A DNA stretch of 64,000 bases from a virus: IMG/VR virus record IMGVR_UViG_3300022407_006288, positions 1 to 64,000 of that record; one strand, written 5' to 3'. The notes beneath the pieces are model-generated. The model had not been told where the DNA came from, searched no databases, and worked only from the letters and a program-made list of their open reading frames with translations. The translations under genes and the position numbers were made by a program. Positions 38,875-43,494 of this stretch are shown piece after piece. Position 1 is the first letter of the stretch. Each line of letters starts with the position of its first letter.

Positions 38875-40071
38875 ATGACTAATGATGAAAAAATAAAACA
38901 ATTTAAAAATATATTTACAAAATTAGCAAGTATTGAACTTGATGCATACACTTTATATTTAAATTCCGGTGAAAATAGGGAATATTTGCCGTTAAACCCG
39001 TATACTGGTCCCAAATCATCTAAGGAATTAGAGGATGCAGGGTGGACTAAATTTTGTATTCGTAAAACAACTAAATTTTATCACCCGGCATTAGACGTGA
39101 CAAATAATCGGGATGCTACTCTCTTTTATAAAGCTGCGCTCTTTGATAAATTTGACCCGGACAACAAGATAGGCAAAAAATGGACAGATCTAGTTTACGT
39201 TTCCGATAAATGGAGTGAAAAACGCGGTATGGAAAATACCGTCTTTGAACCTATATCTCAACTCGAAGTTCACTTTGAATATGTTAGTACGCAAGGTGTT
39301 TATCGAATAAGACACAACGGAAGTAAAGTGGGGTTTGATCTTTTTTCATTATATAATTATGAGGCTAAGGCGATCAATTTAGCCAATAATAAAGAATATT
39401 TAAAACTTATGCAATACGGGCCCAATCATAAAGATAAATTGCTGATATGTCATTTATCAGGGCAAAGTATGTCGCTTATTGAATTAACAAATTTCGAAAC
39501 AGGTTTCAAAGCTGCGCAATCTTCGCATCAGCTACATCATGCACGGTATGATAAAACAGGAAGTATATATAAAATTGTAGAACCAAGTCAGTTAATGGGG
39601 ATGAAAAATTTTAAAAATTTTACCCATGAGGAACACATGGAACTGTTAGGCTGTATTATCTTAAGTGGTGATTCTCATGATGCAATACATAACTCAAATA
39701 AACAAGACGGCATTGATAACTGGTTTAAACGGCTCGAACTAAAAGAGTGCTACTCTTTACCTTATCACTGGGTATCAAGAGAAAACTATAACAATACGCT
39801 CACGTATCTTTCAGAAAATACAGATTATTTTAATAGAGACTTAGCATTATCCTATGATGATTTTATGAAAAAACATAGTGTTTCTACAACAATTACAAAT
39901 TCAGTGTTGGCTGAACTGACTGAGTCGAGTATTGCTGAACCAACGACTGATTTTGTTCTTTTGTCCAAAAGTCATCCCAGTTTACAAATACCCACCCTTT
40001 ATAATTTAGAGATCGATCAACAACAAACTTTAGATTTTGAGGATAAACAACCCACTTATCTTTACGGCTAA
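38875..40071 (+). CDS. Hypothetical protein, possible HNH-type nuclease
   Basis: ICHLSG...LHHARY...CIILSGDSHDAIH resembles a beta-beta-alpha-metal motif; 3' end overlaps resolvase antisense. Confidence 0.45.
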   Translation: MTNDEKIKQFKNIFTKLASIELDAYTLYLNSGENREYLPLNPYTGPKSSKELEDAGWTKFCIRKTTKFYHPALDVTNNRDATLFYKAALFDKFDPDNKIGKKWTDLVYVSDKWSEKRGMENTVFEPISQLEVHFEYVSTQGVYRIRHNGSKVGFDLFSLYNYEAKAINLANNKEYLKLMQYGPNHKDKLLICHLSGQSMSLIELTNFETGFKAAQSSHQLHHARYDKTGSIYKIVEPSQLMGMKNFKNFTHEEHMELLGCIILSGDSHDAIHNSNKQDGIDNWFKRLELKECYSLPYHWVSRENYNNTLTYLSENTDYFNRDLALSYDDFMKKHSVSTTITNSVLAELTESSIAEPTTDFVLLSKSHPSLQIPTLYNLEIDQQQTLDFEDKQPTYLYG

Positions 40072-40417
40072 TTTTAATTAAAATTAAATTTAAATCGCCC
40101 TCATCCTCAACTTCGTGCTGCTGTTGTATCCACGAATCGAGGATCTTTACATCTGTGTACCATAACTGGTGAAACGGGAAGTCTTTGTAACTTTTGCACT
40201 CCACATTAAAATGTGTCCATGCATCTGGAGGATGTATGTCCCCTTTCTTACTTTGTAATTGTGACTGATCTAATGTGGCTTTTCTAAAATTATTTTTGCC
40301 GCCCACAAATGCACCGCTACTGGGTACTCTCAGAAATGATAAATTATAGGTTGATGATAAAAATTTAGCCACCTCTAGTTCCCAACTGTTTCCCTTAGCC
40401 TTTGATTTACTTGGCAT
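39893..40417 (-). CDS. Holliday junction resolvase (PD-(D/E)XK, Hjc-like)
   Basis: KGNSWELEVA...RVPSSGA...GDI...NVECK. Confidence 0.8.
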   Translation of the reverse strand: MPSKSKAKGNSWELEVAKFLSSTYNLSFLRVPSSGAFVGGKNNFRKATLDQSQLQSKKGDIHPPDAWTHFNVECKSYKDFPFHQLWYTDVKILDSWIQQQHEVEDEGDLNLILIKISRKDKWVVYPQNLKFVVDRSLNYKGWVFVNWDDFWTKEQNQSLVQQYSTQSVQPTLNL

Positions 40418-40480: not shown

Positions 40481-41068
40481 ATGACCTATACACCCGCATT
40501 TGAAAAAGCAGTTGATCATACCATGTTATACGAAGTGGGCGGGTTTTGGAATGTGGCCCATCCGGCTGTAAAAATGGGGCTTATTGATAGCAAAGAAAAT
40601 CGTAGAGCTGTTGGTTATACCAATGATCCAGTTGATGTTGGCGGTGAAACAAAATTCGGTATTGCTAAACGTGCTAATCCCACTGTTGACATAGCTAAAC
40701 TAACATGGGAAGGTGCATTGGCAATATATTACAGTCACTATTGGTTAAAAGGTAAATGTGATAGATTACCTGCTAATATAGCCGTACTGCATTTTGACGG
40801 ATGTGTAAATTTTGGAGTTGGACAAGCAGCTAAATTCTTACAGCGGTCGGTTTCGGTACAAGTTGATGGTGCTATTGGTGAGATTACAATTGATGCTGCT
40901 AGAATGTTAAATCAGATTACCGTATGCAATACAATTTGTGATCAAAGGGACAACTACTACAAGCAAATTGTATTCAATAAGCCCGCTCAAGTAAGATTTT
41001 TAAACGGATGGCTTCGCCGAAACGCCGAAATGAGAGCTTTTAGCACAAATCCCGCTAATAAATTTTAA
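40481..41068 (+). CDS. Endolysin, glycoside hydrolase family 108 with peptidoglycan-binding domain
   Basis: EVGG...DPVDVGGETKFGI, VDGAIG.IT, C-terminal RFLNGWLRR. Confidence 0.88.
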   Translation: MTYTPAFEKAVDHTMLYEVGGFWNVAHPAVKMGLIDSKENRRAVGYTNDPVDVGGETKFGIAKRANPTVDIAKLTWEGALAIYYSHYWLKGKCDRLPANIAVLHFDGCVNFGVGQAAKFLQRSVSVQVDGAIGEITIDAARMLNQITVCNTICDQRDNYYKQIVFNKPAQVRFLNGWLRRNAEMRAFSTNPANKF

Positions 41069-41071
41069 CGT

Positions 41072-41224
41072 ATCAAGAATATTGTTGGTATAGAGTCAGT
41101 GAAGATAAAATAGTACAACAAGTAAAATTGTTCATCAAACCTACAGCATCAAAATATTCTAATCACATCTAATATACCAGCATAATTCTTAAATCAAAAT
41201 TCTATCAAATCAAAACACATCAGA
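41072..41224. repeat. AT-rich tract of dispersed ATCAAA repeats
   Basis: ATCAAA at 41134, 41148, 41193, 41204, 41209; ATCAAG/ATCACA/ATCAGA variants at 41072, 41162, 41219. Confidence 0.6.
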
Positions 41225-41254
41225 ATTTAGTACAATTAAAAGTTAAGTATTTAC

Positions 41255-41640
41255 ATGTAGGGTTGACAAGCCCGGTTAGTATTTTGTTGGCGTGTCGTTC
41301 GGAATGGAGCGCAACAGCCAGGTCCTTTGAACATGCAAGGGCAAGACTATAAAAAAGCGGCCTATGTCGCGAGTAAGATAGTCGAGTTTAAGTTTGCGGT
41401 GGGTATGTGAAAACAGGGTATGGCCCGCCGGTTGCGTAATTATTTTCTGAAGAATAATTACATATGCAATGAGTCTGTATGAAGTCACAACTTCTTGGGC
41501 CCCTTCCGAAACGCTATCAAATGCGTGTAGTTGACATAATCAATCCAACACTACAAAAAATATTTCGGTTCAGAATCTGGCGAAACTGTCATGGTTTTTC
41601 CATATCTAGGTTTTAGATACCCTTGATCTGACTCCTCCGT
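41255..41640 (+). ncRNA. Candidate large structured non-coding RNA
   Basis: GC-richer, lacks a credible ORF, about ten adjacent stems including a UGU-GAAA-ACA tetraloop and G-U pairs favouring the + strand; TAAGTA late-like promoter at 41244-41249. Confidence 0.5.
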
Positions 41641-41669
41641 CATGTATTCCTTAAAATATAAAATAAGTG

Positions 41670-41724
41670 TTTTAAAGAATGTTTTAAACAATATTCTTTA
41701 AAATATTTTTAATTGCGAAGCAAT
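41670..41724. repeat. Inverted repeat plus GCGAAGC mini-hairpin (origin-like)
   Basis: TTTTAAAGAAT/ATTCTTTAAAA perfect 11-bp arms (41670-41703); ATTGC-GAA-GCAAT (41712-41724). Confidence 0.6.
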
Positions 41725-41752
41725 CAGTACGAAAGATATTACGAAGCGAAGT

Positions 41753-42328
41753 TTACGTAGCGAGTAATTCTTGATGTACTTGGTCTGCAAGACCATTAAT
41801 GATAAGATTAGGCTTTTTGTAAATACGCCTAACAAGTTTAAGTATATCTTGATTGTTCTCGTTGATAATGCCGAGATATGGCCGTAAAAATGCGCCGTAT
41901 ATTTCGTCGGAAATCATCTTTGTAGTAAGTACACCAGTAAATTTCTGGAAGTATAATGACACAAAAGCACTAAGGCGCAGTTCTATGTCGCCGTGTAAAG
42001 TAGATAAATTTGCCCTTGTAACAGGATCAATGTATCTTATTAGTTTAATCTCACCTTTTACAATATACAATTCGGTGATTATAAAATTACTATTGGGTTT
42101 TTGAATGTAAATATATCCAGTATTGCTTATTACCGGAACATTAGATTTAAGAGATATATTTGCTTCTTCATCGGGCAATGAGTCAGTCTTAAATGGACTC
42201 CATTTAATATTTTGTGCATCAAGTAATCTTGACAAATCATACACCCAGCGATGCTTGGGATATCGCTCCCAACATTCGAGATCGTCGCCGGGAATGTTAA
42301 ATTCCTGTGTTTCTAGTTTTTTATTCAC
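41753..42328 (-). CDS. Hypothetical phage protein
   Basis: 191 aa, GTG start with AAGGA RBS. Confidence 0.7.
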   Translation of the reverse strand: MNKKLETQEFNIPGDDLECWERYPKHRWVYDLSRLLDAQNIKWSPFKTDSLPDEEANISLKSNVPVISNTGYIYIQKPNSNFIITELYIVKGEIKLIRYIDPVTRANLSTLHGDIELRLSAFVSLYFQKFTGVLTTKMISDEIYGAFLRPYLGIINENNQDILKLVRRIYKKPNLIINGLADQVHQELLAT

Positions 42329-42340
42329 GATAATATTCCT

Positions 42341-42577
42341 TTACATGTATTCCTTGCCGCCGGCTGGGCTTTGTTCTTTGCGTCTTTTATTAATGACCTT
42401 AATTGATAATTCTCGATCCTCAAAACTCATTGCCCAAGCCGAATCTAATTCAATGCCACCGCCCATAAAGTAACATATATCTAGTATTTGTTCTTTTAAT
42501 GCTCTTGACTCATTGGTGTAAGATTCAATCAGGTCGCTTAATTTCTCTGGTGGGAGTGTAATTAAGGACCTTATGAA
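42341..42577 (-). CDS. -1 frame extension of the gp26-like protein (tail-assembly-chaperone T-segment-like); not in ORF track
   Basis: Frame open 42595-42341 without a 5' start codon; reads FIRSLITLPPEKLSDLIESYTNESRALKEQILDICYFMGGGIELDSAWAMSFEDRELSIKVINKRRKEQSPAGGKEYM. Confidence 0.7.
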   Translation of the reverse strand, partial: FIRSLITLPPEKLSDLIESYTNESRALKEQILDICYFMGGGIELDSAWAMSFEDRELSIKVINKRRKEQSPAGGKEYM

Positions 42578-43413
42578 AAATTTACAGGATTGAAGTCAAT
42601 TTCGTTTTCCCATTCGTTGCTACATTTTTCACATGTTGCCATAAACACTCGTTTAATGCCAATTTGATTGATTTCTTTAATTAAGTCGGAAATTTTATCA
42701 ACACTTTTTTTATCAATATTTTGTAAAAATTCTTTAATGTCATCTTTGTTATCTACGTTTATGTCATTGCCTTCATCTACAACTTTAACAATTGAACTAC
42801 ACATGAGAACATAGGTAATTTTTGACATTTCACTAAATGCACTTGCAAATAATTTCATTCTGGCTTCGTCGGTGATTGTTTCGCTTTCGACTGCTCTTCT
42901 AAGCTTGTTTTGTTCAAACTGAGCGCGTAACCCACTTAACAATTCTGGGAATCCGTAAGGTTTAACAAAAATACTAATACCGGATTCTAAATTTACAACG
43001 TATTCCTCATCTAGATAGCTCATGTTATCAAGCGCATATTGAAGATCGAGCTTAAATAAATTTGGATGGCTACATTTATTACATGTAATCTCAGTTTCTA
43101 ATGCATCGTTGTATGTTGCATATCTGATGGCTGTAATAATTGCATCAACATCGTTGGTTAACAAAACCCTGGGATCGCTGACTGCAGGTGCACAACTTTT
43201 AATTATTTCAACAATGGCTTCTCCGTTCAGCAAAGCATCTGGATTCTTAAGAATAAGTTCGTCTTTTCCAGTCATAGCCATGATTCCAATTTCACCAGAA
43301 TCAGTGAAATTTATAGCACCCGGCGCATAGTACGATGTTCCTCCTGGCAATTTTATATAAAGCTTGAATTGTCTAAAATATTGCTTTAGGGGATTTACAC
43401 GAGTTTGTTCCAT
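42571..43413 (-). CDS. Baseplate hub/tail assembly chaperone, T4 gp26/gp51 family
   Basis: YIKLPGG, MTGKDELILKNPDALLNG, two CxxC pairs; start moved to MEQ (AAGGA RBS) because the MINK start at 43473 is the late promoter itself. Confidence 0.75.
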   Translation of the reverse strand: MEQTRVNPLKQYFRQFKLYIKLPGGTSYYAPGAINFTDSGEIGIMAMTGKDELILKNPDALLNGEAIVEIIKSCAPAVSDPRVLLTNDVDAIITAIRYATYNDALETEITCNKCSHPNLFKLDLQYALDNMSYLDEEYVVNLESGISIFVKPYGFPELLSGLRAQFEQNKLRRAVESETITDEARMKLFASAFSEMSKITYVLMCSSIVKVVDEGNDINVDNKDDIKEFLQNIDKKSVDKISDLIKEINQIGIKRVFMATCEKCSNEWENEIDFNPVNFS

Positions 43414-43435
43414 GAATTTTTCCTTGAAAATATTT

Positions 43436-43471
43436 GATAAATAATATGAAATATGTTTGCTCTTATTTATC
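43436..43471. promoter_or_regulatory. Face-to-face late promoters
   Basis: GATAAATA + at 43436-43443 (to tape measure); GATAAATA - at 43464-43471 (to gp26-like gene). Confidence 0.7.
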
Positions 43472-43494
43472 ACGGGACTTAACTGAATAATACT

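Follow-up and report, generated by a model that had tools for sequence, protein, structure and literature searches.

A putative stand-alone gene for a 385-nucleotide structured RNA of an undescribed family in uncultured jumbo phages

We analyzed the first 64,000 nucleotides (nt) of the virus record IMGVR_UViG_3300022407_006288 (hereafter the window), a 130,872-base IMG/VR record with a CheckV completeness estimate of 33%. On balance, positions 41259–41644 of its + strand are best read as a stand-alone gene for a trans-acting noncoding RNA (ncRNA) of approximately 385 nt that belongs to an undescribed family and works through its fold. Comparison of related sequences showed a predicted architecture in which a 5′ hairpin is followed by a long-range helix (41282–88/41579–85) closing a core that branches into at least seven helical arms, and then by a 3′ tail. 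A first-pass annotation had placed a large structured ncRNA with a group I intron-like order of helices at 41255–41640; these coordinates proved almost exact, and its suggestion of a large RNA that stands free, interrupts no gene, and may represent an undescribed family is supported here.

Conservation and covariation of the RNA

Relatives of the element were retrieved through the endolysin protein encoded upstream of it, then by exact-word scans of viral and metagenome collections, and then with nhmmer. The resulting family comprised 58 full-length matches, of which 36 were distinct (on phage or metagenome contigs) and 32 were below 97% identity. In five loci, the segment 41259–41648 shared 79–83% nt identity, while the endolysin there was only 57–59% identical as a protein. 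Against one relative, L006, nt identity was 83% over the RNA, 63% over the endolysin gene, 67% over the gene downstream (encoding a protein of 191 amino acids [aa]), and 57% and 39% over the two spacers. The RNA is thus more conserved than the genes and spacers that flank it, suggesting that selection acts on the RNA itself. The borders of conservation were sharp, with a start at 41259/41260 (AGGGTT) and a stop at approximately 41642–41644 (CCGTCA). Furthermore, loops of 18–28 nt were nearly invariant across diverged phages whose neighboring proteins were only 42–59% identical, which argues for specific contacts of these loops with a protein, another RNA, or a second copy of the same RNA, or for an active site.

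RNAalifold, run on 20 sequences, predicted 74 pairs, 33 of them with a compensatory change. A curated model of 95 pairs for the whole RNA was counted on 32 sequences and compared with 500 shuffles. In this model, 89.9% of the cells were paired (81.0% in the shuffles), and changes on both sides occurred at 54 pairs (33.0 ± 2.7 in the shuffles) and in 300 cells (95 in the shuffles); none of the 500 shuffles reached the model on any of five measures. When the partners were slid by 1–3 columns, pairing fell to 32–45%. The best-supported helices were 41397–404/41423–30, 41431–36/41465–70, 41437–44/41453–60, 41324–29/41336–41, 41345–50/41378–83, 41473–76/41497–500, and 41506–11/41563–68. Several U-G or G-U pairs were conserved, for example in 32, 30, and 26 of the 32 sequences; because such pairs would be A-C mismatches on the opposite strand, they fix the RNA to the + strand.

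The RNA matched no described family. With Rfam 15, a check proposed in the first-pass annotation with Intron_gpI and GIR1 among its targets, nothing reached the gathering score on the 64-kb window, only chance matches were returned at E ≤ 10 on 41000–41800, and none of nine homologue loci gave a match. The covariance models (CMs) of GOLLD, ROOL, OLE, and raiA likewise matched neither the window nor these nine loci, and ARAGORN called 0 tRNA or transfer-messenger RNA (tmRNA) genes. When bacterial and archaeal loci were fetched with a seed 16-mer, the family profile matched none of them beyond the seed word, among the matches listed. No description of this RNA was found in the literature, including 2026 preprints on ncRNA discovery.

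Helices, invariant loops, and the type B paralogue

The family falls into two types, and the RNA of the window is of type A. Of the seven stems named in the first-pass annotation, six were borne out by covariation (41260–64/41269–73, 41322–29/41336–42, 41345–50/41378–83 enclosing 41357–61/41366–70, 41397–403/41424–30, and 41436–44/41453–61); further stems had been claimed up to 41619, and helices in fact run on to approximately 41642. The RNA begins with the hairpin GGGUU/AGCCC (41260–41273, stem 41260–64/41269–73), which is 94% paired and closed by an A-U, G-U, or G-C pair. A U-G pair in this hairpin is conserved in 29 of 32 sequences, and the hairpin is also retained in type B. The long-range helix that follows (5′ strand 41282–41288, 3′ strand 41579–41585, +) pairs over 5–7 bp, with 84% of cells paired and all changes compatible with wobble pairing. 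In the type B sequence L103, both end pairs of this helix are changed on both sides (AUCGCA/UGCGAU versus UUCGCC/GGYGAA). On the basis of the wobble-compatible changes and this compensation, we assign 41282–88/41579–85 as the helix that closes the body of the RNA.

Within the body, the seventh stem of the first-pass annotation, GUUG(G)CGU/GCGCAAC, turned out to be misregistered, since the invariant CAAC faces GCCG, GCUG, or GUCG in relatives. In its place, covariation backs two stacked helices, 41289–91/41317–19 and 41296–300/41307–11 (41289–41319; labeled P4/P5 in that annotation), which are 100% paired, with compensatory changes from G-C to U-A or A-U. The next hairpin, GUCCUUUG/CAAGGGC (41322–41342, stem 41322–29/41336–42; labeled P6), is 96% paired, with both-sided changes at four pairs and up to five pair types. 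The helix labeled P7 (41345–50/41378–83, spanning 41345–41383) closes an internal loop and an inner hairpin, and five of its six outer pairs covary. The strands of the internal loop, 41351–56 and 41371–77, carry an invariant GAA and an invariant AGUAAG. The combination AGUA/GAA is the signature of the sarcin-ricin (bulged-G, loop E) module, and the J8/7-like word AGUAAGA may more simply be, together with the GAA facing it, one of the two sides of a loop of this type between coaxial helices. The inner hairpin, 41357–61/41366–70 (+; labeled P8), carries an insertion of 30–40 nt containing ACGGAGGGAUCCAUGCAC in L091:1399-1859, L295, L185, and L153, and thus represents an arm of variable length.

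The hairpin with the best support, CGGUGGG/CCCGCCG (41397–41430), is 97.7% paired, with both-sided changes at seven of eight pairs; its loop, which contains AGGGUAU (41415–21), is invariant in type A. It is followed by a long hairpin with a CUGAA-type loop (41431–41470), whose two segments, 41431–36/41465–70 and 41437–44/41453–60, are 99.5% and 92% paired, with both-sided changes at ten pairs, and by a hairpin of the covariation model at 41473–41500 (stem 41473–76/41497–500), the inner stem of which (41481–85/41490–94) is deleted in some relatives. The helix CCGAAA/UUUCGG (41506–11/41563–68, spanning 41506–41568) encloses the hairpins 41512–14/41523–25 and 41527–31/41550–54. All six of its pairs are rewritten between types A and B (for example, CAUGAC/GUCAUG and CAUGGC/GCCAUG), and the 18-nt loop at 41532–49 hardly varies among the 34 sequences of alignment A5, which covers both types.

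The 3′ tail contains two copies of a direct repeat, CYGUCA, at 41586–41591 and 41637–42. The copies covary in at least ten lineages, with identical changes in the two (UCGUCA twice, CUGGCA/CCGGCA, CAGGUG/CCGGUG, and CUCCCA/CACCCA), and no segment inside the RNA is consistently complementary to them. The UGAC at 41629–32 and the UUGACA of the near-invariant loop were rejected as partners, since neither covaries with the repeats. The two copies may be a double binding site for one external partner or the marks of two processing sites, or may represent a small internal duplication that has been homogenized. Units of approximately 17 nt around the repeats (RUCUGR...YGUCA) resemble a small tandem duplication. 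Between the copies lies the hairpin UAUCUA/UAGAUA (41603–41619, stem 41603–08/41614–19). Of 29 type A sequences checked individually, 28 form five or six of its six pairs; the fourth pair is C-G, U-A (eight sequences), or G-C (one sequence). The segment AUACCCU (41617–41623) is the invariant complement of the loop segment 41415–21; the two are 97.8% paired and, being invariant, offer no covariation from type A. In type B, read by eye, the complementarity is extended by GAAA/UUUC. The pairing 41415–21/41617–23 is therefore proposed as a candidate pseudoknot or intermolecular kissing contact. The RNA ends with a 4-bp hairpin, UGAC/GUCA (41629–41642), which is 90–94% paired with one-sided changes only and holds the second CYGUCA; conservation ends with it.

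Type B (L103, L115, L131, L110/L315, L220, and, in part, L299) keeps the 5′ hairpin, the closing-helix strand, and the entire 3′ domain with the near-invariant 18-nt loop; the P4–P6-like region is replaced by a different middle part, and the RNA is approximately 100 nt longer than type A. Because type B retains the 3′ domain and swaps the P4–P6-like part, the universal core of the family is the 3′ domain. In the same complete genomes, a single CM, model R1, scored type A at 126–159 bits and type B at 77–81 bits. The two types occur on the same strand of complete genomes with direct terminal repeats (DTRs), 182 kb apart in one of 385,394 bp (L062) and 196 kb apart in another of 369,145 bp (L092). 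Type B is a true paralogue of type A and shares its invariant loops. The spacing in both genomes is approximately half a genome. A third complete genome, of 362,810 bp, contained only type A according to model R1, and the 130-kb fragment to which the window belongs carries one copy of the RNA. Type B copies lie in a different context, without an endolysin gene upstream.

Locus, neighboring genes, and carriers

The RNA occupies an open reading frame (ORF)-free gap of 684 nt (41069–41752). Upstream lies a complete endolysin gene (40481–41068, +) with GH108 and PG_binding_3 domains and matches in both Pfam and PHROG; its position is syntenic in nearly all relatives. Downstream, the convergent 191-aa gene (41753–42328, −) is followed by a T4 gp26-like baseplate hub gene (42571–43473, −; PF12322, phrog_150), whose product shares 41.5% identity with the PA5oct baseplate hub. 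The type A arrangement is constant: endolysin (+), approximately 200 nt, RNA (+), 50–100 nt, 191-aa gene (−), and hub (−). The GC content is 0.46–0.49 at 41250–41450, with a positive GC skew, versus approximately 0.35 around it.

Between the endolysin stop codon and the RNA is a leader (41097–41258, +) that is AT-rich, A/C-rich, and G-poor (GC content 0.22–0.30, skew −0.44 to −0.55), with only 57% identity to L006. It contains loosely conserved blocks at variable spacing, namely, a AAACCCAAATCT-like block, an AAAGCA-like block approximately 30 nt upstream, and CACAWTRTA abutting the start of the RNA. These blocks are present in most of the 32 relatives, and homology detected by nhmmer extends back to approximately 41097. 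The leader may be a promoter, a rut-like site, or an unstructured 5′ leader; a general promoter motif was rejected because the window has no further copies of the blocks. On the other side, the AT-rich spacer 41645–41752 between the RNA and the 191-aa gene is poorly conserved (GC content 0.22–0.28, 39–57% identity to relatives) and holds an A/T inverted repeat; no consensus terminator was called in it. Short CGAAG/ACGAAGCG repeats at 41700–41770 lie to either side of the point where the 191-aa gene ends (its 3′ end) and also occur in relatives (alignment A1).

The 191-aa protein had no match in Pfam or PHROG searches and carries a conserved motif, CWERYPKHRWVY, at its N-terminus. Its AlphaFold2 (AF2) model (pLDDT 77.9) is predicted to have an ATP-grasp-like fold: the top Foldseek matches were all ATP-grasp enzymes (PurK, D-Ala-D-Ala ligase, and LysX/ArgX; E approximately 3e−3, probability 0.9–0.99). 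We know of no connection between such a fold and RNA. The gene is unrelated to the ORF downstream of the type B RNA, and with the ATP-grasp-like fold, this led us to reject a link between the RNA and the 191-aa gene. Like the RNA, the protein had no homologue among 50,697 cultured-phage records. Farther upstream, a 398-aa ORF without a family (38875–40071, +) overlaps a PDDEXK/RusA-like gene on the opposite strand (39893–40417, −) by 179 nt; a start or end of one of the two was probably misplaced by mechanical ORF calling.

The carriers are uncultured jumbo phages of approximately 360–390 kb that are distantly related to PA5oct. Judged by the hub protein, Pseudomonas phage PA5oct and its kin come closest among cultured phages (41–42% identity), followed by Sinorhizobium phage Phosso and Rak2-like Erwinia phages. 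In three of these phages, a syntenic gap of 0.8–1.5 kb lies between the hub gene and the RusA-like resolvase gene (L460:6568-8080 in PA5oct; L464:5224-6237 in Phosso; L465:4050-4852 in Erwinia phage pEa_SNUABM_19, MW879342.1 173566-174368); the Erwinia phage and Phosso have no gene annotated there, and PA5oct has only four tiny annotated ORFs (38–50 aa). Searches with nhmmer and model R1 found no homologue of the RNA in the PA5oct, RaK2, Phosso, and pEa_SNUABM_19 records or in the syntenic gaps, and a 20.7-bit match in RaK2 was rejected as a terminator plus coding sequence. Two ncRNAs of PA5oct, ncRNA001 and ncRNA002, are highly expressed according to RNA sequencing (RNA-seq) (PMC7318152). On comparison, both were unrelated to our RNA and were rejected as homologues. 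The pEa_SNUABM_19 gap is one of five spaced copies (at approximately 30, 92, 174, 258, and 334 kb) of another large element. This element resembles the RNA in its place relative to the hub gene and in being multi-copy and spaced; it shows no detectable sequence or CM similarity, so that the likeness is confined to synteny and multi-copy layout. It bears a promoter-like site, TGGTATAAT.

Alternative explanations and known large RNAs

If the element is a gene for a trans-acting ncRNA, the RNA would be transcribed rightward behind the endolysin gene and would act through its three-dimensional fold and invariant single-stranded loops, possibly as a scaffold for protein partners, as an RNA-only particle that assembles itself in the manner of GOLLD or ROOL, or as a ribozyme. 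Several points weigh against this proposal. We infer the transcript, its ends, and its abundance from the DNA, and no promoter or terminator was identified when they were looked for at the locus. Nothing in the 130-kb genome fragment is complementary to the near-invariant loop, and no partner, target, or activity was identified; a role as an antisense regulator of phage genes was rejected, the complement of this loop occurring nowhere else in the window or in the record. No homologue of the RNA was found by blastn against the 50,697 phage records, so that nothing can be borrowed from experiments on cultured phages. The data do not constrain the choice among scaffold, RNA-only assembly, and ribozyme. 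Finally, the minimum free energy of 41255–41640 was no better than that of shuffled sequences (z = −1.03 for the + strand and −0.43 for the − strand). By the energy comparison suggested in the first-pass annotation, the element would fail; we consider that the comparative evidence overrides it, and the case illustrates that a folding-energy z-score alone would wrongly dismiss a real RNA.

The first-pass annotation had likened the element to a group I intron core, and a molecule of this kind, whether an intron or a free-standing ribozyme of group I descent, would have the core P3-P4/5-P6-P7-P3′-P8-P7′, bind guanosine, and cleave or splice RNA. We regard this as very unlikely. The helix order in the 5′ half of type A does resemble P4, P5, P6, and P7(P8)P7′, the words CAGCCAGGUCC and UAAGAUAGUC are present, as are the signature-like words CAGCCAGGTCC (41315–25) and TAAGATAGTC (41374–83), and the 5′ hairpin with its conserved U-G pair is the sole splice-site feature in favor. 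The RNA is also in the size class of group I introns (RF00028) and the GIR1 lariat-capping ribozyme (RF01807), and one of its helices, which surrounds a hairpin and has a purine-rich joining strand (AGUAAG) on the 3′ side, is reminiscent of P7-P8-J8/7. However, the Intron_gpI and GIR1 models were among those without a match in the Rfam searches above. The P3 pseudoknot defines the group I topology, and P3–P8 and P4–P6 are the universal core of these introns. On the side of the group I reading, the P3-like pairing proposed at 41280–86/41350–56 comprises three conserved pairs, and a single compensatory event is seen in it, in the sequence of the window itself; the candidate P3 (41282–85/41353–56) is 82% paired. 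Its 5′ strand also fits the helix with 41579–85 that is compensated in L103, and type B lacks an equivalent of P3′. The P7-like helix has no invariant G-C pair: five of the six pairs vary, the outer one being G-C in 13 sequences, A-U in nine, and unpaired in six and the others swapping among A-U, U-A, C-G, and G-C, and the sixth pair is U-A. The flanks are unconserved AT-rich spacers rather than exons, no + strand ORF is interrupted, the endolysin gene is complete and ends 190 nt upstream, and the last conserved bases, CCGUCA, are followed by a variable base, so that the terminal omega-G is absent. Type B replaces the P4–P6-like part and keeps the 3′ domain, a conservation pattern opposite to that of group I introns. 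The RNA thus differs from group I introns and GIR1 in lacking a CM match, a supported P3/P7 double pseudoknot, a G-C guanosine site, exons, a terminal G, and an internal guide, and a resemblance at the level of motifs did not survive covariation analysis.

Among the other readings, a role in replication or genome organization, such as an origin primer RNA in a persistent hybrid with adjacent AT-rich DNA, appears unlikely. T4 oriF/oriG and ColE1 RNA II provide precedents, AT-rich stretches flank the RNA on both sides, a recombination gene (the PDDEXK/RusA-like gene at 39893–40417) is nearby, the complete DTR genomes carry two same-strand paralogues 182–196 kb apart in 369–385 kb, and the syntenic place in pEa_SNUABM_19 holds one of five spaced ORF-free elements. 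Nevertheless, the conserved, tertiary-looking structure and the invariant loops exceed what a primer needs, GC skew does not turn at the locus, genes converge on it rather than diverge, the Erwinia element is not detectably homologous, and two related genomes with the same spacing are not independent observations. It also seems improbable that the element is a cis-acting part of the endolysin transcript, that is, a 3′ untranslated region element for stability, processing, or termination or an insulator between convergent late operons. The RNA of type A is always on the endolysin strand, 190–250 nt downstream of that gene and convergent with the hub operon, its G-poor, C/A-rich leader resembles an unstructured linker, and no separate promoter was recognized; yet the type B copies keep the same 3′ domain without an upstream endolysin gene, the spacers on both sides evolve freely, and a 385-nt pseudoknotted fold with invariant loops far exceeds known terminator or stabilizer elements. 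There is a slight chance that the RNA is an anti-defense or host-takeover decoy that mimics or sequesters a nuclease, an RNA-binding protein, or a translation component. Phage RNAs that titrate host factors are a precedent, the loops are invariant and exposed, and the distribution is phage-specific, no locus fetched from the genome collections by the 16-mer having matched the family model, among the matches listed. Against this, no target was identified, the RNA lies in a conserved region of late virion genes and not in an early or accessory one, and similarity to Escherichia coli rRNA is at chance level (best 11-mer, E = 0.41), with no match to the profile. Mimicry of rRNA, suggested by UUAGAUACCCU (16S 790 loop) and GUGUCGU...GAGCGCAAC (16S 1060–1100), was rejected because the matches to the E. 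coli rrn operon were at this level. Scarcely credible is the notion that the element is no RNA at all and instead acts as a signal in the DNA or encodes a small protein on one of the two strands. Mechanical ORFs are present at 41276–41488 (−, 70 aa) and 41479–41616 (+, 45 aa), and − strand ORFs of 61–92 aa recur in some relatives. These ORFs are nevertheless absent from close relatives such as L006 and have no match in PHROG; indels of 1, 5, 16, 19, and 34 nt among the relatives, some of them inside these ORFs, break every reading frame, and ORFs within the element vary in strand and frame between relatives, which excludes a coding reading. Paired compensatory changes and strand-specific G-U pairs, moreover, are unexpected of coding sequences or double-stranded DNA signals. 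We infer that the RNA is neither an intron nor a cis-regulatory leader nor a DNA signal, and we retain the stand-alone ncRNA gene as the best explanation.

The comparative support for this ncRNA is unusually clean, with 54 covarying pairs and near-invariant loops; in addition, the same genomes contain a paralogue, and the position of the RNA among the virion genes is fixed. The RNA offers a defined, synthesizable 385-nt target for cryo-electron microscopy, chemical probing, and activity screens, and it suggests an investment in complex RNAs on the part of giant phages. To our knowledge, large and highly structured ncRNAs are rare, and each class so far has been a ribozyme, a core ribonucleoprotein, or an unexpected RNA-only nanostructure. 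It is conceivable, though we would not expect it, that types A and B together form a new class of large RNA of the rank of RNase P, group I introns, GOLLD, and ROOL, either catalytic or assembling into an RNA-only particle, kept by giant phages at two or more spaced same-strand loci and using the invariant loops as an active site or assembly interface.

Jumbo phages carry translation-related RNAs, and our RNA shares with RNase P RNA (RF00010/RF00011) and tmRNA (RF00023) a length of 350–400 nt, several pseudoknots, a core closed by a long-range helix, and single-stranded segments that do not vary. It differs in having no CM match and no tmRNA call by ARAGORN, its 5′ and 3′ ends are not paired with each other, and neither CR-I to CR-V-like nor tRNA-like elements were seen by eye. 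A closer parallel in kind is provided by GOLLD (RF01998) and ROOL (RF03087), large ornate RNAs that are often borne by phages or prophages and form RNA-only homo-oligomeric cages (PMC12286853). Our RNA is likewise a large, multi-branched, pseudoknotted phage ncRNA with no associated protein or function known, and its invariant complementary loop and tail (41415–21/41617–23) could act as candidate intermolecular contacts. In contrast, at approximately 385 nt, it is smaller than ROOL (approximately 580 nt) and GOLLD (approximately 800 nt), and its place is constant, among the virion genes of jumbo phages and not close to tRNA genes. Large ornate phage-borne RNAs are thus already known as a kind through GOLLD and ROOL, and the RNA described here is a new, unrelated family.

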